A stretch of 20,349 bases of DNA from Candidatus Bipolaricaulia bacterium (GTDB lineage Bacteria; Bipolaricaulota; Bipolaricaulia; JBHIAT01), in assembly GCA_046758705.1 (NCBI GenBank), contig JBHIAT010000055.1, positions 1 to 20,349 on the forward strand, read 5' to 3'. Each line of letters starts with the position of its first letter. Position 1 is the stretch's first letter. Below the pieces are notes generated by a model. It was not told the DNA's origin and searched no databases. It saw nothing but the letters and a program-made list of their open reading frames with translations. Shown one piece after another: positions 252 to 20,349 of the stretch. A program made the position numbers and the translations under genes.

Positions 252-263
252 AAGGAGAGTGAG

Positions 264-1145
264 ATGTCTGTCAAAGTACTTCTCGATACGGATATTGGAT
301 CCGACATCGACGATGCTGTCTGCCTCGCCTACCTATTGGCCCAACCGGAGTGTGACTTGCTCGGTATCACGACCGTCACCGGCGAGCCGGAGAAGCGGGC
401 GATGCTGGCCAGTGCCATCTGCAGAGTCGCCGGCAAGGAAATCCCGATCTTTCCAGGGGCACCGCAGCCGCTGTTGGTCTCTTCAAGGCAACCTCAGGTG
501 CCTCAGGCGGCCGCGTTGGAAAACTGGGAATACGCCACGGAGTTTCCTCAGGGTCGGGCGCTGGGATTCATGAGGGAGACGATCTACGACAATCCTGGCG
601 AAGTCGTCCTGTTGGCGATCGGTCCGATGACCAATGTGGCGCTGCTGTTCAGAATGGATGCGAGGATCCCTGAACTACTGAAGAGCTTGGTATTGATGTG
701 TGGCGTGTTCGTTCGTTCAGCCGGCAGAAGAAACCTGCTGGAATGGAACGCCCTGGTGGACCCGCACGCAGCGGCGATTGTCTATCAGACGGATGTGAAC
801 GTCCATCGTTCGGTGGGTCTGGATGTCACCACGCAGGTGGTGATGGATACCGAGGAAGTCCGAGCGCACTTTAGCGTGGATCTGCTGCAGCCGGTGCTCG
901 ACTTCGCCGAGGTCTGGTTTGAGCAAAGGGACGAGATCACATTTCACGATCCCCTAGCTGCAGCTGTGATCTTCGACGACGGAATCTGCACATTCAAGCG
1001 CGGAGAGGTGCAGGTAGAGCTGGCAAGCGCGCCGTTGCAGGGGATGACTCTTTGGAATTCGCGCGTTTCAGACCCGAAGCACGAGATCGCGCTGGAGGTA
1101 GACAGCGAGCGGTTCTTCGAGCACTTCTTCTCCGTGTTTCAATAA
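264..1145 (+). CDS. Inosine-uridine-preferring family nucleoside hydrolase
   Basis: N-terminal [10 protein letters not shown] (DxDxxxDD) Ca-binding motif, plus AIGPMTN, EWN..DP.AA, GLDVT and FHDPLAA. Good SD. Confidence 0.93.
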
Positions 1146-3122: not shown

Positions 3123-3672
3123 ATGCGGCTTGGAATAGGAAGCTATGCGTTCCGTTGGGCGGTGGGGACGAAGAGATTTCGTCCCGCTCGCCCCCTAACT
3201 CTGGTGGATCTTGTACACAGAGCCGTCGAGCTGGAGGTCGATGTTGTCCAGTACGCGGATAATCTGCCGCTTGACGACCTTTCCCCTGTGGAAAGGGTGG
3301 CACTGAAGCGTGTGGCTCAAGATCACGGGATGGTGTTGGAGGTTGGAACGGCACTCGAACTGGCCGCTGGAGACGGTGAGCATGCTTGCCCCGTGCGCTC
3401 TCAGTCTCCACCTCAAGGACTACGTGATCCGGCCGGACCTGGAAGGTATCGGCCTCGTCATCACAGGTGTGCCATTAGGTGAGGGGATGCAGAACAGTGA
3501 GCGGATTCTTGAGATCGTCCGGGCCAGCGAAAAAGATCCCAACGTGATTCTGGAGCAGTGGATGCGTCACCGGGAGAGCGAGGTCGAGACGTTGCAGATG
3601 GAGCTCGAATGGATGCGAAAGAGCGTTGGGGCCGGACGACAGCTCATCCGGCCCCTGGGAGGAGGATCATGA
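3123..3672 (+). pseudogene. Second TIM-barrel protein (resembles 3-oxoisoapionate decarboxylase OiaC-like family), deleted and frameshifted
   Basis: The N-part MRLGIGSYAFRW...LEVGT is in the frame of 3123. The C-part WPLETV...LHLKDY...GVPLGEG...ILEQW is in another frame ending at TGA 3672. Frame switch at about 3350-3370; the central part of the barrel is missing. Confidence 0.75.
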
Positions 3673-4784
3673 CAGCTGCATCTGGAGAAGCCCGAACTTA
3701 TTACCCCCCTCCGGAATCGGAGGGAGGATGGCGTTGGCTCAAAGGGCCTGAGGAGGTTCGATCGATCGGGGGGATGGATCCCGATAGGCTTCAGTTCGCC
3801 TGTGAATGGAACGCGCTGTATTCCAGCAGCTCGGAGGTGGTCATCATCCGCCACGGATACCTGGTTACAGAGTGGTACGAAAACCATACCCTCACCCCCA
3901 CCCGATTTGACATCTGGTCATGCACCAAGTCGTTCACAGGTACGGCATACGGCGTTCTGTTCGAGGACAGTCAGCTGGACAAGCTTTCCTCGGACAAGCG
4001 CGTCGATCTGGACAGCTTCGTCTACCCCCTCATCCCGGAGGGGTATCCGTTGAGCGATCCGCGGAAGGAGCAGATCACATTTCGTCATCTACTGTCCATG
4101 ACGTCCGGCATACCTGGCCAGAGATCGGGTGTTTACGGTCTCCCAACCGAGATCGGGGTGGGCCCGTTTGAGGCGGCGTTGGGCTGCGCACCGGTGAAGG
4201 CCCGCCGATGGCCGACCGAACGATGGGCATCCCAATTGTCGGCAGAGCCAGGGACCCAATGGGATTACAGCGATCCCGCAATGGCCCATCTGGCACTGGC
4301 TTTCTATCATGTGACTGGCCGGGAGATCAGCGAGTTTATGCAGGAGCGGGTGTTCGACCCCATCGGCATCGAGAGCCTCAGCTGGGACATGCAGGGCGTC
4401 GGTGCCGAATTCATCGGGCCGCATACCAATGCCCACACTGGTATCCATATCTGCGCTCGTGAACTGGCGCGATTTGGCTACTTGATGTTGCGCAACGGGG
4501 TTTGGGATGGGCGACAGATCGTAGCGCCCTGGTGGATCGAGGTGGCGACCCAAACCTCACAGGAGTTCAATCCCAACTATGGCTACACCTGGTGGGTAAA
4601 TACACAAGGGATCCAGTGGCCTGGGGTTCCACGGGATGCGTTTGCGGCCATGGGACATCTCTGTAACCGATGTTACGTGATCCCTTCGCTCGACCTGGTG
4701 GTGGTGCGCATCGGTTCGGGACCCGCAAGTTGGGAGGAGCCAGTGTTCATCGAGAAAGTCGTCGATGCGGTTATCGCCGATTGA
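3669..4784 (+). CDS. Beta-lactamase-related serine hydrolase (second paralog)
   Basis: Start reassigned to ATG 3669 (GGAGG SD, ATGA overlap with the upstream stop). Motifs WSCTKS (SxxK), ITFRHLLSMTSG, PGTQWDYSD, ELARFGYLML, YGYTWW, PSLDLVVVR. Confidence 0.9.
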   Translation: MTAASGEARTYYPPPESEGGWRWLKGPEEVRSIGGMDPDRLQFACEWNALYSSSSEVVIIRHGYLVTEWYENHTLTPTRFDIWSCTKSFTGTAYGVLFEDSQLDKLSSDKRVDLDSFVYPLIPEGYPLSDPRKEQITFRHLLSMTSGIPGQRSGVYGLPTEIGVGPFEAALGCAPVKARRWPTERWASQLSAEPGTQWDYSDPAMAHLALAFYHVTGREISEFMQERVFDPIGIESLSWDMQGVGAEFIGPHTNAHTGIHICARELARFGYLMLRNGVWDGRQIVAPWWIEVATQTSQEFNPNYGYTWWVNTQGIQWPGVPRDAFAAMGHLCNRCYVIPSLDLVVVRIGSGPASWEEPVFIEKVVDAVIAD

Positions 4785-4813: not shown

Positions 4814-5800
4814 GTGGAGAAACCGGTGATCGCGATCACGATGGGCGATGCGGCCGGAATAGGACCGGAGCTTATCATCAAGGTCCTATCTCAGAGGACG
4901 GCCTGGGACATTTGTCATCCCTTTGTTGTCGGTGACCCCAAGATCATGGTCGATATTTGCAGGATGGTGGGAACAAATCTGCAGTTCAAGGCCATCGGAA
5001 ACTTATCAGAGGTCAACTTCTCTCCATCAGTTGTCGAAGTCCTGTGTCCAGAGGGACTGCGTGTGGATCACGTGCGGTGGGGTCAGGTCGATCCTGCCAT
5101 GGGAAGGGCAGCGGCCTTGTGTCTACAAAAGGCTTTCGAGATGGCTCTCGTTGGGGAAATCCATGGCGTGGTCTCAGCGCCTCTTAACAAAGAGGCGTTC
5201 CATCTGGCCGGGTATCAGTACATGGACGAACTCGCCTATTTGGCCCATTTGACAAGAAGTTCGGAACCGTTCACTGTGGGCGTCATGGATCGGGTTTGGA
5301 CCGTTGCGGTGACCGAGCACGTTCCCTTCAGGGATATCGTGGATCTGATCAAGAAAGACAGGATCCTGAAGCAGATCAGCCACCTACACGGAATCTTGAA
5401 GAAAGCAGGATTCACCGATCCCAAAATCGCGATGGCAGCACTGAACGTTCACGCCGGAGAGGGAGGGCTTTTCGGGCGAGAGGAGATTGACGAAATTGGA
5501 CCCGCGATCCAACGGGCGAAGCAGCAAGGGATAAATGTCCAGGGACCCTTCCCTGCTGACACCGTATTCGTGACGGCCATGGATGAGGGCTTCGATGGGG
5601 TCGTCTGCATGTACCACGATCAGGCCAACATCGCACGGAAATTGTTGGCGAAACGAACGGGGGCGACCCTCTTCATGGGCCTGCCGGTGATCTGTGGTAC
5701 CACCGCACATGGCACCGCCTTTGATAAAGCGGGAAAGGGAATCAGCGATCCAGGTAGCCTGGAAGCCGCGCTAAAGTATACGGTCAAGCTTTCTTCTTAG
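4814..5800 (+). CDS. pdxA: PdxA-family metal-dependent dehydrogenase, divergent (catabolic PdxA2-like context)
   Basis: GTG start after GGAGG. Motifs IAITMGDAAGIGPE, SAPLNKE, TEH, LNVHAGEGG.FG.EE, GPFPADT.F, MYHDQ, HGTAFD.AG. Confidence 0.85.
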   Translation: MEKPVIAITMGDAAGIGPELIIKVLSQRTAWDICHPFVVGDPKIMVDICRMVGTNLQFKAIGNLSEVNFSPSVVEVLCPEGLRVDHVRWGQVDPAMGRAAALCLQKAFEMALVGEIHGVVSAPLNKEAFHLAGYQYMDELAYLAHLTRSSEPFTVGVMDRVWTVAVTEHVPFRDIVDLIKKDRILKQISHLHGILKKAGFTDPKIAMAALNVHAGEGGLFGREEIDEIGPAIQRAKQQGINVQGPFPADTVFVTAMDEGFDGVVCMYHDQANIARKLLAKRTGATLFMGLPVICGTTAHGTAFDKAGKGISDPGSLEAALKYTVKLSS

Positions 5801-12256: not shown

Positions 12257-13405
12257 ATGCCGAGATTCGGTGATCGCCTGGGGGAGATCCTGATCGACAT
12301 GGGAAAGCTCTCCGAGATCGAACTACAGAAGGCACTGGCAATCCAGAAGACCGACGGGAACGGAAGACGGCTTGGTGAGATCCTGATCGAGCAAGGTTTC
12401 ATCACCGAGGAGGAGCTCGGCCAGGCGCTCTACCTCCAGACGGGTTATGAATATATCCAGCTGGCCAACCAAGAGATCGATCGCGAAGCGCTGGCGTTGG
12501 TCGATAAGGATTTTGCCCGCCGCAAGATCGTGATGCCGGTCCAGAAGATCGATCATCAGTTGGTGGTGGCGATCGGTGACCCCAATGACGTCACGATCAT
12601 CGATGATCTGCGGTCTCAGACGGGTATGAAGATCAAGCCACGTGTCTCCACCCCCTCCGAGATCAAGCGGAAGATCGAGACCGCTTACAGCCAAATGCGG
12701 CTCAGGGACCCCGGGGTGAAAGAGGAGAGGATCCCCCCGCTCACCCAGGTGACCGACGATATGCCGGTCAGCCAACTCATCGAGGTGATCATTAACGAAG
12801 CGCTGCGACGAGAGGCCAGCGACATCCACATCGAACCGCTCGCCGATCAGCTTCAGGTACGTTATCGCATCGACGGGGTCCTGCAAGGAGTGACGCGATT
12901 CTCCATGGACATCCACGCACTCACCGGCCACCTCGTCTTCTCGACGCTCCACACCAATTCAGCCGTCGACGCTGTGCCGCGACTGCTCAACATGGGTGTG
13001 GAGCCCTACCTGCTGGTTGCTGCGTTGAGAGGGGTCGTCTCCCAGCGGCTCGTCCGCAAGCTCTGTAGCAATTGCAAACAGCCGGTTCAACCGGAGAAAT
13101 GGGAGCAGAAGATCTTCGCAGACCACCTTCACGGAACGGTCGAACCGGTGGAGACGATCTATCGTCCGGTCGGCTGTCCCCGGTGCAGCAACCGGGGATA
13201 TCGGGGAAGGATCGGCATCTTCGAGCTGTTTGTCATTGACGAATGGACCCGGGAGATGATCGTAGACGGGGCTTCTGATGAGGAGATCACCCGAGAAGCG
13301 ATCAAAGGTGGGATGACCACCCTCATCGAGGATGGTTTGTGTAAGGTCATCAGCGGCATCACCTCGCTGGAAGAGGTGCTGTGGCACAAAGGATCGAGCA
13401 TCTGA
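12257..13405 (+). pseudogene. PilB/GspE-family protein with N-terminal MshEN domain and deleted ATPase core
   Basis: Tandem MshEN motifs RLGEILIDMGKLSEIELQKALAIQ and RLGEILIEQGFITEEELGQALYLQ; ASDIHIEP; RYRIDGVL. The sequence then jumps at about 12917 to ALTGHLVFSTLHTN, SQRLVRKLC, CxxC..CxxC and GYRGR. No Walker A, Asp box or Walker B. Confidence 0.85.
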
Positions 13406-14155: not shown

Positions 14156-17100
14156 TCATGGACTCGTTGATAGCCCGGTATCTGCGCGTAGATCCTGAAT
14201 GACCGTCTCGAAGTTCTGCTGCTCGAGTTTTAACTCCTCTACCTTGACCTTTCCTTTGCCTTCGACGTATTCCACGATCTTTCGCATCGCCGCCTCCCGG
14301 CAGATGTAGGCGATGTCGGCACCGTTCATTCCCTCCGTCTGCAGGGCAAGCGGTTCAAGATTGATACGCTTTGAGAGCGGCATCCCGCGGGTATGAACCT
14401 TGAAGATCTCGACCCGCTCAGCCAAGTCGGGTTCATAGGTCTTCAGCTTCAGCTCAAGCCTTCCCGGTCTCAGCAAGGCTTCGTCCATCATGTCTATCCG
14501 ATTGGTCGCCCCGATGACGATCACCTGTTTCAGCGACTCGATCCCGTCGAGTTCGGTGAGCAACTGGCTGGTCACCCGTTCCGGGACGTTCGATCCCACC
14601 TCTCTACCCCTTAGGGAAGCTAACGCATCGATCTCATCCAAGAAGATGATACAGGGCGCTGCCTGTCGGGCTTTCTTAAAGATCTCCCGCACCTTCCTCT
14701 CGGATTCCCCCACGTACATGCTGAGCAGCTGCGGTCCTTTGACCGGGATGAAGTTCACCTCGGTCTCGTGGGCGATCGCCTTCACTAGCAGCGTCTTGCC
14801 GGTGCCAGGGGGGCCGTAGAGGAGGATCCCGCTCGCCGGCTCCACGTTGAGCCGAGAGAAGGCCTCCCTGTACTTCAACGGCCATTCGATCACCTGCTGC
14901 AACGTGGCCTTGATCTCCTCTAATCCACCGATATCGTCCCAGGTGACGTCCGGGGTCTCGATGAACACCTCCCGGATGGCTGAGGGCTCGATCTCTTTGA
15001 GGGCGTCTTCGAAGTCGCTTCGCATCACCCTCAGATTGAAAAGAACCTCGTAGGGTATCGCACCGGATTCGAGATCCAGATCGGGCAGGATCTGTCTCAA
15101 GGCACGCATCGCCGCCTCCCGACACAGGGCCTCGAGATCGGCGCCGACGAAACCGTGGGTGATGTCAGCGAGCCTGTTGAGATCCACATCATCGGCCAGG
15201 GGCATCCCTCGGGTGTGAATCCTGAGAATCTCCAGTCGACCTTCGACATTGGGGATCGGGACGGTGATCTCCCGGTCGAAGCGGCCCGGCCGCCTGAGTG
15301 CAGGATCGAGGGCATCCGGGATGTTCGTCGCACCAATAACCACGAGTTGGCCCCGTTGCTCCAGCCCGTCCATCAGCGCCAAAAGCTGAGAGACGACCCT
15401 TCGTTCCACCTGTTTCTCGCTGCTCATCTCCCCCCGCTTGGGGGCGATCGCATCGATCTCGTCGATGAAGATGATGCTAGGGGCGTTCCGTTGTCCCGCT
15501 TCAAAGACCTGCCGCAACCGAGCCTCGCTGTTGTGGGCAAAGATGCCCCCCCAACCGGCCACGAAGTTCTCACCTGGTTCGACAGCGATGTCATAAACAA
15601 ACTCCGGATGATCAGGCAGTTCCTCAACCGCTACCACCTTGTCCCAGAACAGATCACCTTCCAATGCGGGCTTCAAAGGAGCAGGTAGCAACGCAAGTCT
15701 CTTTTTTACAGCGTTAATGCCGATGCTGGTCAGTCCTTCCCAGGAATGAACTCTATAACCGAGCAGATCCTGCACGGCCGCTAATGGTATGCGGTCACGT
15801 CGGGATGCTGCTGCTACGTCGAGATATTCTTTGATGACTGAGATTCTATCCGAATCCAAGAAGCCTATCTTCAGGAAACGTTCCAGATTCTCAACGTCTG
15901 CGAAGCAAATCCGCTTATGTGATTGAGCAACACGGTCGTATATTTTAGCTACAATGCCGAAGTACAATAGCAGGTGGCAAATATCATCGGCTAGGGCTGT
16001 ACTGGCAGTGCTGATCTCTATTTGTGGAGCTGGTGTGGTGCGATTGATCGAACCATCGCCGGAGATATAGCCTCGTAGAAAAGCGGCCAGATTTGGTCTG
16101 GACAGATTGTAGACAAACGCCGGTACGCGCTTTCGGCGCGCACCACCCACGAAGCCTAACGCCTGCATCGCTTTAACCAGCGGAAGTGAAGAGACTAAGA
16201 TATCCACGGCTTTCTTGCCTGCACGACGATAAATAGTTACGTGGCCAAAGAGACGGGTGCAAAGAGCAATAACGACATCTGCCTCGTCAGCATGAACACT
16301 GACACGTACACTCCCTTTTAAAAATGAACCTTCAGCCAGCCATAGCCCGAAGAAGGTGCATAGGTCTTCGCTTAGTGTCATGATCGCTGGTATGTCCTTG
16401 TATCGCTTGATCGTCGCAAGCGTCAATCTTTTTGGATCCACGGAAAGGTTGGCAGCTTCAGCCAGATGCAAAAACCTGGGCAGCCGAATCCCAACGTGCT
16501 TAGACGAAAGGTCATATGTGTATTTCACGCTCACTCCGAGGAGTACTGCACACTGGTTGCGACCGAGAGCAGTGATGGCCTGACGGATGAGCTGTTCGAC
16601 ATAGGGTCCCCTGACCACGATGCTATCATCGTCTCTTAGTAAAGCTAGCAAATTAAGTTTGCCAAGTGGCTCGGCTACGAACGGCAGACACTTAGGTACG
16701 GCGACAAACGACTGACCGACCACTAGCTCAGAAGTCTTGATGCTTTTGACGCCATCGGCATCGAGAGTAAAGAGGGAATGATCATCAGTGACCCGAATCG
16801 AGCGACCGCTAGCCGTACGTACACGAAGCAGCCTGCCGTTGAACGGATGTTTGTAAAAGCCAGCAACCTGACCGAACCGTATCTTGCCGTCTGGACCAAA
16901 GCACGGTACTCGAAGCGCAGTATCCTCCTGGGCAACGATATCAGCGATAGGCCTGCGTTCAAGAAATCCATCCTTGAGGACAAGGACTAATTCATCCCCT
17001 GGTAACGACTCCCCATAGTACTTTCCGATGACCTCAGGCCCCCCGATGTGAAAGAAGCTGGCATCGGTCTCGTTCGCCAGTGCCCGGGCGATGAGGGTCT

Positions 17101-17797
17101 TCCCCGTCCCCGGAGCGCCGTGTAACAGAACGCCCTTCGGCGGGTCGATTCCCAGTTGGTCGAACAACCGTGGATACTTCAACGGGAGTTCGATCATCTC
17201 CCGGATCCGATCGACCTGGCCTCCCAGCCCGCCGATGTCCTCATAGGAGACGCCTCGCTTTTCCGTTCCCCGCTCCCGTTCTTTCTCTTTGGCCGCCTGC
17301 TCCGCGATAACTACGCGGGTATCCGGGGTGATGATGACGATCCCCGATGGCTCAACCTTTAAGACCTTGAAGTTCTGGAACCCGGAACCCAGTAAGTTTG
17401 CCCGAACCTGATCCCCATTCTTCATCGGGATGTTCAGGAGGAGTTTCTTGATATAAGCCCGATCCTCAGCCTGAGGCGAAGCGCTTAACGTCAACGGAAG
17501 GAGCCGGACAACCCGCGCCGGTCGATAGTCGGCCTTCATCACCTGCACCTGACCGTCCACCCTGGCACCGGTGTTCCCCCGCAGGATGCCGTCCATGCGG
17601 ATGATCCCTTTCCCCCGGTCCTCAGGATAGGTGGGCATCACCTTGGCGACCGCCGACCCCTCGGCCTTGATCTCCACTACATCTCCGACCTCAACGTTCA
17701 GCTCCCCCATATGTTCGGGATCGATGCGCACGATCCCGCGCCCGACGTCCTCAGAGGAAGCCTCAGAAACTCTTAATTTAATTTTCTCGTTTTTCAT
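14156..17797 (-). CDS. CDC48/p97/VAT-family AAA+ ATPase, intein-containing (about 720 aa after splicing)
   Basis: N-domain [18 protein letters not shown]1 GAPGTGKT / IFIDEID / [13 protein letters not shown]2 GPPGTGKT / IFLDEID / ALLRPGR. Start taken at ATG 17797 ([10 protein letters not shown]). Confidence 0.93.
15530..17008 (-). mobile_element. Intein with LAGLIDADG homing endonuclease (493 aa)
   Basis: Interrupts GKYYGE|SEARLR. Block A SLPGDELV, block [14 protein letters not shown], endonuclease motifs [10 protein letters not shown] and [11 protein letters not shown], block [15 protein letters not shown], block G IFAHN followed by +1 Ser. Visibly more AT-rich than the host gene. Confidence 0.95.
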
Positions 17798-17974
17798 CTT
17801 TAATTTAGGATAACCACCGATCCGGTAAACTGCTAAGACAACAGGGACGCTTCGATGGGCCATCGATCACCCGATTTCGGGACAAAGTCCACCTCGCTAT
17901 CAAACTCAAGTCCTGCCATCTCAAGGTGGGGGGGTTTATAGTGAGTGGAGAATGCGCTGAGGAGGTGAGAGGGG

Positions 17975-19258: not shown

Positions 19259-19843
19259 TTACACACCACTGACGGTATAAACGAGCGTGATCGCATAGTC
19301 TCCGTCTCGATGTCTCTTCTTATCGAATAGCACTTTGTAATTGATTCCGATCGCCTGTTGCTTTCGGCCGATTGCCACCGTTTGATATGTCCGGGAAATC
19401 GCTTGGTAGCTCCCTCCATCTGCCCGCCACAAAAAGTCACTTAACGGTTTGGTGTACGTCCGATCGTGGCTCGTTCCCATATCTGTCGCGCGGGTACTGA
19501 CGCTGAGCACCCAATCGGTGTTGCTCCAAACACTCCCCTCGACGGCATCGACAATCTCGATGAACCCGACCTCAAAATCTCTGGCGGTAGGGATGGGCAG
19601 TGTAAAGGTAGAGGCTGCGGTTGAGGAATCGACCTGTGTGACATCAACAAGCGGTGAGCTGGAACGGATACTCAGCTGAATGATGTAAGGGATCTCGAAG
19701 GTGACGGTTGCGGCTGACTCTGATCGGACGGAACCGGCTTGAACCGTTGAGGAAAGTAAAAGTAACACCAGAGAAATCAAAGAAGACAGGATGACCATTG
19801 CGGTCCAGCCTGTCCAGGTTGGATTTGAGCTGTACTTTTTCAT
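19259..19843 (-). CDS. Secreted beta-rich protein, fimbrial/pilin-like
   Basis: Signal peptide ending VQA|G; alternating beta-strand patterns; SNTDWVLSV; C-terminal GDYAITLVYTV resembling the G-x-Y..L-x-Y-T ends of Csu/CS1/WxL-type subunits. SD AAGGA. Confidence 0.7.
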   Translation of the reverse strand: MKKYSSNPTWTGWTAMVILSSLISLVLLLLSSTVQAGSVRSESAATVTFEIPYIIQLSIRSSSPLVDVTQVDSSTAASTFTLPIPTARDFEVGFIEIVDAVEGSVWSNTDWVLSVSTRATDMGTSHDRTYTKPLSDFLWRADGGSYQAISRTYQTVAIGRKQQAIGINYKVLFDKKRHRDGDYAITLVYTVSGV

Positions 19844-19844
19844 T

Positions 19845-19932
19845 GTCCTTCGGCAGCCCAGCCACCCTCGGCTTTACGTTAGGGTCTGTGGCTTTGTGTC
19901 CCTCCCTTTCGGGAGGTTTACCCTTTCGGGAC
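19845..19932 (-). ncRNA. c-di-GMP-I (GEMM) riboswitch, proximal aptamer
   Basis: GGGUAAA-CCUCCC-GAAA-GGGAGG-GACACAAAGCCACAGACCCUAA...AGGGUGGCUGGGCUGCCGAAGGAC: P2 with GNRA loop, GACRCAAAGCC core, P3, and GCUGCCGA 3' end. It overlaps the SD. Confidence 0.93.
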
Positions 19933-19942
19933 CGGTAAACCC

Positions 19943-20037
19943 CCTTCGGCAGCCCGGCAATCTTAATCAGCTTTAAGTTCTGTTTAAGACCCGTGGCTTT
20001 GTGTCCCCTGCTCACGCAGGGTTTACCCGTTCGAGTG
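19943..20037 (-). ncRNA. c-di-GMP-I (GEMM) riboswitch, distal aptamer
   Basis: GGGUAAA-CCCUGC-GUGA-GCAGGG-GACACAAAGCCACGGGUCUUAA...UUAAGAUUGCCGGGCUGCCGAA, with compensatory stem changes relative to the proximal aptamer. Confidence 0.93.
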
Positions 20038-20125
20038 GATTGCTATCAAAGACCTTTACTTTAATATACCCTCAAATCGAGCACTTTATAGTTATTGTTA
20101 CCATGTTCACCTTTTCAGCGGACAG

Positions 20126-20219
20126 AGGTCCCATCCCTCAGTCACGAAGTGGATATTCTTGGTTAACGCTCGCCCTTCACCCATATAGAAGGATGGAGGC
20201 TAAAATCTTGAGAGAGATG
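20126..20219 (+). repeat. Leader shared by the pilB-like gene and pilT, copy B
   Basis: Colinear with 12084-12180. Confidence 0.85.
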
Positions 20220-20349
20220 ATCAACAACGTTGAAGAGATCCTGACCCAGGCATATCAGTGCGGGGCTTCCGATATCCATATCACCGTCGGAAGGCCGCCG
20301 ACCTACCGCATCCACGGCAAGCTGGTCCCATGGCGTGAGGGCGGCGCCG
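20217..20349 (+). CDS. pilT: Type IV pilus retraction ATPase PilT/PilU, 5' partial
   Basis: MINNVEEILTQAYQCGASDIHITVGRPPTYRIHGKLVP matches the PilT N-terminal ASD.H...G.PP..R.HG.L motif. Runs off the window edge. Confidence 0.85.
   Translation, partial: MINNVEEILTQAYQCGASDIHITVGRPPTYRIHGKLVPWREGGA

Follow-up and report, generated by a model that had tools for sequence, protein, structure and literature searches.

Two c-di-GMP-I aptamers and a Shine-Dalgarno-like tract ahead of the start codon of a fibre-like gene in a Bipolaricaulia bacterium

The leader of a gene for a secreted, fibre-like protein of Candidatus Bipolaricaulia bacterium carries two aptamers of the cyclic di-GMP (c-di-GMP) class I, and its description as a dual-aptamer c-di-GMP-I riboswitch with a single translational expression platform is well supported. 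The locus was studied in a stretch of 20,349 nucleotides (nt), called the window below, which is contig C55 (GenBank JBHIAT010000055.1) of the 3.7-Mb assembly GCA_046758705.1. Among tandem riboswitches the c-di-GMP-I class is the commonest, but its members have been treated as rows of independent switches. The main interest of the present locus lies in the order of its parts, with a Shine-Dalgarno (SD)-like tract before the proximal aptamer and the start codon after it, an order that is conserved among homologous loci.

Two aptamers and a single platform

Exactly two Rfam matches were found in the window, both on the minus strand (as are all window features below unless the plus strand is named) and both full length, covering positions 1 to 80 of the model RF03167 (c-di-GMP-I-GGC), which scored best for each copy. 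A permissive Rfam search of 19700-20349 gave no further match. The proximal aptamer, at 19848..19931, has a GAAA loop on its P2 stem (RF03167 69.7 bits, E 6e-15; RF01051 69.1 bits), and the distal aptamer, at 19944..20036, has a long P3 stem and a GUGA loop on P2 (RF03167 64.5 bits, E 2e-13; RF01051 68.5 bits). With cut-offs of 35 bits for RF01051 and 59 bits for RF03167, the canonical model RF01051 (c-di-GMP-I, GEMM-I) also passes in both copies, over its positions 1 to 87. An earlier, sequence-only reading of this DNA had described two complete GEMM-I aptamers with compensatory differences in their stems, and both observations were borne out: P2 is CCCUGC/GCAGGG with the GUGA loop in one copy and CCUCCC/GGGAGG with the GAAA loop in the other, and P3 is CGG/CCG against CAG/CUG, so that P2 and P3 differ by paired changes. 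Both P2 loops fit the GNRA pattern of the class. The P1 stem of the distal aptamer is weak at this locus.

Both aptamers have G, A and C at model positions 10, 37 and 75, which we take to be the equivalents of G20, A47 and C92 of Vc2; the c-di-GMP specificity that the same earlier reading had drawn from G20 and C92 agrees with the bases found there. The "GGC" of the better-scoring model presumably refers to a G that replaces A at the middle position of the pocket. The identification of the two copies with that variant was rejected, since the model's G37 aligns to an A in both of them even though their scores pass, and they are read as canonical aptamers that happen to resemble the seed sequences of RF03167. 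An identity as cyclic GMP-AMP (cGAMP)-sensing GEMM-Ib aptamers was rejected as well, since it needs an A at position 20, where both copies have G. PMC6456294 reports that the A20G change flips selectivity, with G20 as the c-di-GMP state and A20 as the cGAMP state, while position 20 is, according to PMC9262584, a factor in selectivity and no hard filter. Judged by their sequences, the two elements are genuine c-di-GMP-I aptamers and predicted sensors of c-di-GMP.

The aptamers are separated by a linker of 12 nt (19932..19943), which is homologous to the 12-14-nt linkers of paralogous cassettes in the same genome (alignment A1). Its last base, G19932, opens the 5' strand of the proximal P1, in which GUCC (19929-19932) pairs with GGAC (19845-19848). 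The regulated gene is an open reading frame (ORF) at 19259..19843 that encodes a protein of 194 amino acids (aa) with a signal peptide, probably an extracellular fibre subunit, and its start codon (19841..19843) is an AUG kept at the same place in the paralogue C149. The anatomy is of the glycine type, with two aptamers and a single platform after the second; the linker of 12 nt holds neither a terminator nor a ribosome-binding site (RBS) switch of the kind found where each aptamer has a platform of its own. There are no terminator-like sites in 19600-20349, as the first reading had said, and a translational output, which it had also assumed, is the most likely one. Upstream, a putative -10 box, TATATT preceded by GGG (20063..20068), is suggested by a GGGTAYAAT-like motif at the same place in the paralogous cassettes and would predict a transcription start near 20056; a scan with the sigma-70 consensus found no full promoter at the locus.

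The strongest SD-like sequence of the locus is the linker. A purine tract, AAGGGGGU, at 19939..19946 bridges the end of the distal aptamer and the start of the linker; the 10-mer that surrounds it has an anti-SD binding energy of -11.5 kcal/mol, which places it in the top 0.3% of the 10-mers of the locus; the 3' end of the 16S rRNA of the source genome is canonical (CACCUCCUUUC). The SD had previously been placed in the 3' strand of the proximal P1, at AAGGA. That motif is present (19846-19850) and is overlapped by the 3' strand of the proximal P1 extension, GGAC (19845..19848), which ends 1 nt before the start codon; its role as the SD is doubtful, as it stands only 2 nt from the AUG and is a weak partner of the anti-SD (-5.4 kcal/mol, against -11.5 for the linker). 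The proximal aptamer is thus placed between the SD-like tract and its AUG.

Tract, aptamer and start codon in homologous loci

The best 29 loci with homologous genes were compared, and in 27 of them an Rfam c-di-GMP-I aptamer lies directly upstream on the strand of the gene, the exceptions being L112, matched on the opposite strand only, and L113, without any match. These 27 and the window locus make up the 28 loci considered here. Four of the 27 are tandems (L090, L092, L095 and L110), with linkers of 12-18 nt. The 28 proteins are 171-194 aa long and have signal peptides, and the start codon follows the 3' end of the aptamer by 1-9 nt in every case. Upstream of the aptamer, an SD-like tract with an anti-SD pairing of -8 kcal/mol or better was found in 23 of the 28 loci; it is usually GGAGGUG and sometimes GGGGGU, has a median energy of -11.6 kcal/mol, and usually falls in the top 0.5% of the 10-mers of its locus. 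The stretch between aptamer and AUG reaches -8 kcal/mol at one locus only, L102, where the tract is missing upstream and a canonical SD follows the aptamer. The linker of the window locus has homologues in the other tandem linkers and in the tract-plus-P1 strand found ahead of the aptamer in single-aptamer relatives, which suggests that it is an SD-like tract plus P1 strands, and neither a free toggle nor a neutral spacer.

Searches for contiguous helices revealed two registers in which the flanks of the aptamer could close, and these searches also gave the spacings. In the first, the 5' flank pairs with the aptamer's own 3' end in a contiguous helix of 4-8 pairs, which is incompatible with ligand binding because the equivalent of C92 is paired in it; this register would give a distance of 7-13 nt between tract and AUG at 21 of the 24 loci with a recognised core motif (21-22 nt in L104-L106). 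In the second, the 5' flank pairs with the short spacer before the gene, forming an extension of P1 with at least 4 contiguous pairs in 27 of the 28 loci, and this extension ends no more than 1 nt from the start codon, or runs over it, in 23 of those 27. In the tandems L090 and L092 (G097 and G043) the AUG itself is paired in the extension (CAUCC/GGAUG), and in L102 (G106) the SD is. At least six unrelated helices occur in this position (CUUCG/CGAAG, GGUUC/GAACC, GGUCC/GGACC, GGCC/GGCC, CAUCC/GGAUG and AUCUC/GAGAU), a variety that is taken as compensatory variation. It is this variation between lineages that supports the P1 extension, the shuffles of single loci not being significant. In many loci the 3' motif of P1 is repeated directly before the AUG, which meets the need of a switch between helix registers. 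The 5' strand of P2 begins with CCUC in 17 of the 28 loci, even where a change in its partner gives a U-G pair.

Taken together with an SD upstream and an AUG after the aptamer, the two registers could make up an expression platform of an undescribed kind, conserved across the class before one family of fibre subunits, in which the register of the closing helix would decide whether the two halves form a working initiation site. One register would pair the aptamer's own 3' end, and the ligand-stabilised one would pair the bases beside the AUG; in the tandem form, the distal P1 would hide the SD and the proximal P1 the AUG. We regard such a platform as possible, while judging it to be on the unlikely side.

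Competing folds and the direction of the response

Together with G19944 the linker can pair with 19912-19922 of the proximal aptamer over 11 positions and with the distal copy of that motif over 10, each duplex including one G-U pair, at energies of -19.4 and -17.3 kcal/mol, which were equalled by 1 and 0 of 500 shuffled linkers, respectively. Its complementarity to both aptamers, as first reported, is therefore real. Since the conserved motif GGUAAACC is common to both aptamers, the two complementarities do not count as independent. Locally, the proximal pairing is an 11-bp hairpin of -17.8 kcal/mol, equalled by 1 of 500 shuffled linkers, with its 5' arm at 19934..19944 and its 3' arm at 19912..19922; within the proximal aptamer the latter takes in the junction and the 5' strand of P2, so that P2 is excluded when this alternative hairpin forms.

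The sequence-only reading had proposed conservation of the linker complementarity in homologous loci as a check, and this check went against it. Strong complementarity to both aptamers was found in 1 of 13 tandems, the window locus itself, and was absent in the 8 other tandems of the genome and in the 4 tandems before homologous genes; likewise, among the 9 tandems of the genome the fold-back hairpin beats its shuffles only in the window. When the duplex between flank and P2 was calculated for all 28 loci, it came to -19.5 kcal/mol in the window, -13.1 at the next best locus and -7 to -11 at most, and it reached the 0.05 level against shuffles in 5 of the 28. A weaker GGAGGU/ACCUC pairing recurs among the loci because of the 17 P2 strands that begin with CCUC.

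Folding energies, which cover secondary structure only, were calculated for the RNA 20056-19815. The minimum free energy was -80.4 kcal/mol; pairing of the linker with the distal aptamer cost little (-78.6), as did its pairing with the proximal aptamer (-77.9, or -77.7 with the core of the distal aptamer folded as well), while both aptamers in their native form with their P1 helices gave -67.1. Alternative pairings are favoured over the doubly native state by about 10 kcal/mol in the ligand-free RNA; the hairpin state, being lower in energy, would be the favoured state without ligand, and the energy of ligand binding would be required to fold both aptamers. Thermodynamics alone picks neither the proximal nor the distal pairing of the linker. 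Kinetically, the proximal partner lies 11 nt off and the distal one is inside a hairpin folded about 70 nt earlier. The unconstrained minimum-energy fold of 301 nt was uninformative.

The linker strand can in fact pair in three ways, with the proximal P2, with the distal P2, and in an extension of the distal P1, the hairpin being without conservation. The paralogues show an extended P1 of the distal aptamer (alignment A1), for which the 5' half of the linker supplies the 3' strand by pairing with leader sequence upstream of that aptamer. This pairing was equalled by 0 of 500 shuffles in C81 and by 1 of 500 in C52b, and it is weaker in C149, C52a and L110.

Our tentative preference, to which we would give slightly less than an even chance, is a translational OFF switch in which both aptamers act alike and produce a steeper, two-ligand response. 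Without ligand, the tract would fold back on the 5' half of the proximal aptamer as the 11-bp hairpin, leaving that aptamer unfolded and the start-codon region single-stranded and open to translation; alternatively, the tract would be free and the halves of the RBS would stand about 12 nt apart across the closing helix, again allowing translation. With c-di-GMP, the distal aptamer would take the G-run into its P1, by which the hairpin would be weakened and the tract hidden, and the proximal aptamer would then fold, with its ligand-stabilised P1 extension closing up to the AUG. The outcome would be repression, and no inverted or band-pass response. This direction is favoured because the AUG lies within the ligand-side helix in L090 and L092, as does the SD in L102, and because that helix ends flush with the AUG in most loci.

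Several points weigh against this preference. The 28 loci come from related lineages and are not independent samples, and the shuffle controls of the P1 extension at single loci were not significant, because the spacers are short. The strong hairpin is special to the window locus, as the only case in 13 tandems and the strongest of 28 loci. The capture of the G-run by the distal aptamer would have to be carried over from the paralogues, and the distal P1 extension in the window, at -3.1 kcal/mol, is no better than shuffles. Were the tract the SD in use, the strong hairpin would mask it in the ligand-free RNA and so depress the ON state. Finally, an ON switch would also be compatible with a helix that closes at the AUG when an SD precedes that codon by 4-8 nt.

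Such an ON switch, acting through a split ribosome-binding site, is the foremost of the alternatives, and we consider it distinctly unlikely. Here the hairpin would, without ligand, hold the tract paired to the 5' strand of P2, whose ACCUCC resembles an anti-SD; c-di-GMP bound to the proximal aptamer would draw that strand into P2, free the tract and close P1, bringing tract and AUG, which are about 95 nt apart in sequence, to within about 8 nt across the helix, and the distal aptamer would compete for the tract and could reduce expression again at high ligand. Genes for adhesins and fibres are often raised by c-di-GMP, and the proposal accounts for an SD-like tract upstream of the aptamer where 27 of the 28 loci have no usable SD downstream, L102 being the complementary case. 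The CCUC start of so many P2 strands suggests a constraint beyond P2 pairing, the hairpin in the window covers the whole tract, and with the P1 extension formed the tract stands, by eye, 4-8 nt from the AUG. There is a precedent in genes 38 and 25 of phage T4, in which, according to PMC3014915, structure shortens the spacing. What speaks against it is that the ligand-side helix pairs the AUG fully in L090 and L092 and the SD in L102, and that the AUG abuts the helix in most loci. In addition, no natural case is known in which an aptamer of 85 nt is tolerated between SD and AUG, and the pairing of tract and P2 is weak outside the window, at the energies given above.

It is improbable, in our judgement, that no coupling was ever designed into the locus, so that the aptamers are independent, or the distal one is decaying, and the complementarity is incidental, a by-product of a G-rich tract that lies beside C-rich P2 strands and of the shared GGUAAACC. 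The absence of the complementarity from 12 of 13 tandems would be expected in that case, as would its division into two parts, GGGGG against CCUCC/CCCU and UUUACC against GGUAAA, of which C81 shares UUACC; cassettes have been copied and recombined around the genome, with the loss of the AUG in C81 and a remnant in C66, and the distal P1 in the window is weak. Yet the 11 contiguous pairs of the hairpin would form whatever their origin and compete with the proximal P2, their energy is matched by a single shuffled linker in 500, both aptamers retain full-length scores and their pocket bases, and a spacing of 12-15 nt is kept in all 9 tandem sets of the genome.

The toggle first proposed for this locus, in which the linker would sit on the distal P2 without ligand and be released by ligand on the distal aptamer to invade the proximal one and expose the RBS with inverted or band-pass logic, is highly improbable: the linker does pair with either aptamer and both forced folds lie within 2.5 kcal/mol of the minimum, but at homologous positions the distal P1 draws its 3' strand from the linker's 5' half, which a bound distal aptamer should capture and hold, not free, the distal pairing needs the invasion of a hairpin already folded, whereas the proximal partner lies at a distance of 11 nt, the dual complementarity stems from one shared motif and is not conserved in the 12 other tandems, and nothing was found that favours such logic.

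The regulated gene, its setting and known systems

The 194-aa protein has no Pfam or NCBIfam match, and six unnamed relatives were found in a large protein collection. An AlphaFold2 model built from 23 sequences (mean pLDDT 89.4) resembles donor-strand fibre subunits; its best Foldseek matches are TLP-1a and TLP-1b (E 1e-4; TM scores 0.48 and 0.41), which are environmental fibrils, followed by the pilins CfaB and CooA and by archaeal bundling pili and threads. The model suggests that the protein is probably an extracellular fibre subunit, which is a lead and no proof. Homologues occur in 88 of 184 genomes of the class, and GEMM-I aptamers in 145 of 151. The sole fibre paralogue in the genome, C21:4446-4964 (minus strand, 36% identity), has no aptamer upstream and carries AAGGAGGUG directly before a candidate GUG or AUA start. 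In the sequencing runs X1-X3, a second version of the fibre gene with about 87% identity (53-72 differences over about 370-560 nt) matches 19302-19859 of the window, and its contigs stop inside the proximal aptamer.

The neighbour downstream encodes a receiver-domain protein, and the divergent neighbour has, by eye, a PilT-like N-terminus and no Pfam match. Further away, a type II secretion/type IV pilus (T2SS/T4P)-type ATPase of 382 aa with an MshEN domain (12257..13405, plus strand) matches the T2SSE profile over its positions 233-369 only and may lack the Walker-A part; MshEN is a known c-di-GMP-binding module. A Cdc48-like double AAA ATPase of 1235 aa (14156..17863) contains a long insertion that is intein-like by eye, which ends in HN followed by S, after which the ATPase motifs resume.

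The assembly as a whole holds 30 matches to RF03167 and 27 to RF01051. Nine leaders have two aptamers 12-15 nt apart, and two of these nine carry a third aptamer further off. The usual pair is an aptamer of 74 nt followed by one of the 84-nt type, which is the type of the proximal aptamer in the window and the second member in 5 other tandems of the genome; the distal, long-P3 type has as its only close relative a single aptamer on contig C66. The leaders on C55, C149 and C81 are copies of one cassette, which runs from the -10-like box through both aptamers to about 110 nt beyond them (alignment A1), these last 110 nt being the start of the coding region. In C149 the AUG is kept, with an in-frame 6-nt indel downstream, whereas in C81 both AUG and frame are lost and the cassette now precedes another gene. 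Only the linker and 8 nt of the second aptamer are retained on C66. That contig was considered as a second example of the order tract, aptamer and AUG, the AUG following by 2 nt, and was rejected, as its ORF falls short of 60 aa and the real gene begins about 157 nt downstream.

Cassettes appear to have been copied before unrelated genes, sometimes with a decayed 5' piece of the fibre gene (C81 and C149). Six other tandem sets precede, instead of a gene, a conserved element of about 110 nt, at C52 ~3380-3497 and ~5040-5153 (minus strand), C23 28411-28527, C97 ~260-374 (minus strand), C190 4580-4700 and C112 ~3620-3736 (minus strand). This element, for which Rfam has no family, has an AUG or UUG 4 nt after the aptamer, within a stem AUGCAAAG/CUUUGCA, and short ORFs of varying length.

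Further sampling of the junction added little. A search for it as an IUPAC pattern hit 9 places in genome contigs and 14 in metagenome contigs, all of them, on inspection, chance matches without aptamer features, in a scan that possibly did not include the records of the source genome itself. A DNA search of 61 related genomes returned only class-level kin with aptamer-sized matches, the nearest comparison genomes being members of the same class. Among the sequencing runs, no RNA run was listed with the locus, and contigs from the DNA runs end within the repeated aptamers and gave no variants of the linker.

A different arrangement of the same parts is present in the genome itself. Two single aptamers, C14:2003-2076 and C14:4297-4370 (minus strand), have the classical translational layout, with an anti-SD-like CACCUC in the 5' flank and with AAGGAGGU, which follows the aptamer by about 17 nt and precedes the AUG by 7 nt, the AUG itself being about 30 nt after the aptamer; judged by this layout they look like ON switches. 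They share the aptamer class and the RBS control of the window locus, but the order of the parts is reversed, the SD coming after the aptamer.

Tandem c-di-GMP-I switches as such are known already. The review by Sherlock et al. 2022 (PMC9481103) puts their number at 347 doublets and 12 triplets, with multiple expression platforms and pseudo-cooperative behaviour, and cases with short linkers may be in its supplementary tables; in Geobacter tandems, according to PMC6456294, the RNA ends after the first unit. The known tandems, including the Bacillus thuringiensis triplet and the Geobacter ones, resemble the window locus in repeating one class within a single leader before a surface or extracellular gene, with a sharper response expected, whereas the window locus differs in its gap of 12 nt, its lack of a terminator and its one shared translational platform. 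In these respects it is closer to the glycine riboswitch, which has, according to PMC9481103, two homologous aptamers, a short linker and a single platform after the second. The glycine aptamers dock by tertiary contacts, while at the window locus the only visible link between the aptamers is competition for the linker strand. The locus is a compact natural two-aptamer device and ties c-di-GMP to an unannotated, widely conserved fibre-like secreted protein.

A search of one paper library, covering main texts, turned up no natural riboswitch whose aptamer is preceded by the SD and followed by the AUG. Should the tract serve as the working SD, the locus would be a natural riboswitch that re-registers a helix within a split initiation region, a mechanism for which the only examples to date are constitutive phage hairpins and engineered helix-slipping switches. 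A natural likeness is that of T4, in which, as given in PMC3014915, intervening structure reduces the spacing from 22 to 5 nt in gene 38 and from 27 to 11 nt in gene 25, a closing helix bringing the separated SD and AUG to a working distance as in the layout proposed here. The T4 insert is a small constitutive hairpin; in the window locus its place would be taken by an 84-nt ligand-binding aptamer with a closing helix that can adopt two registers.

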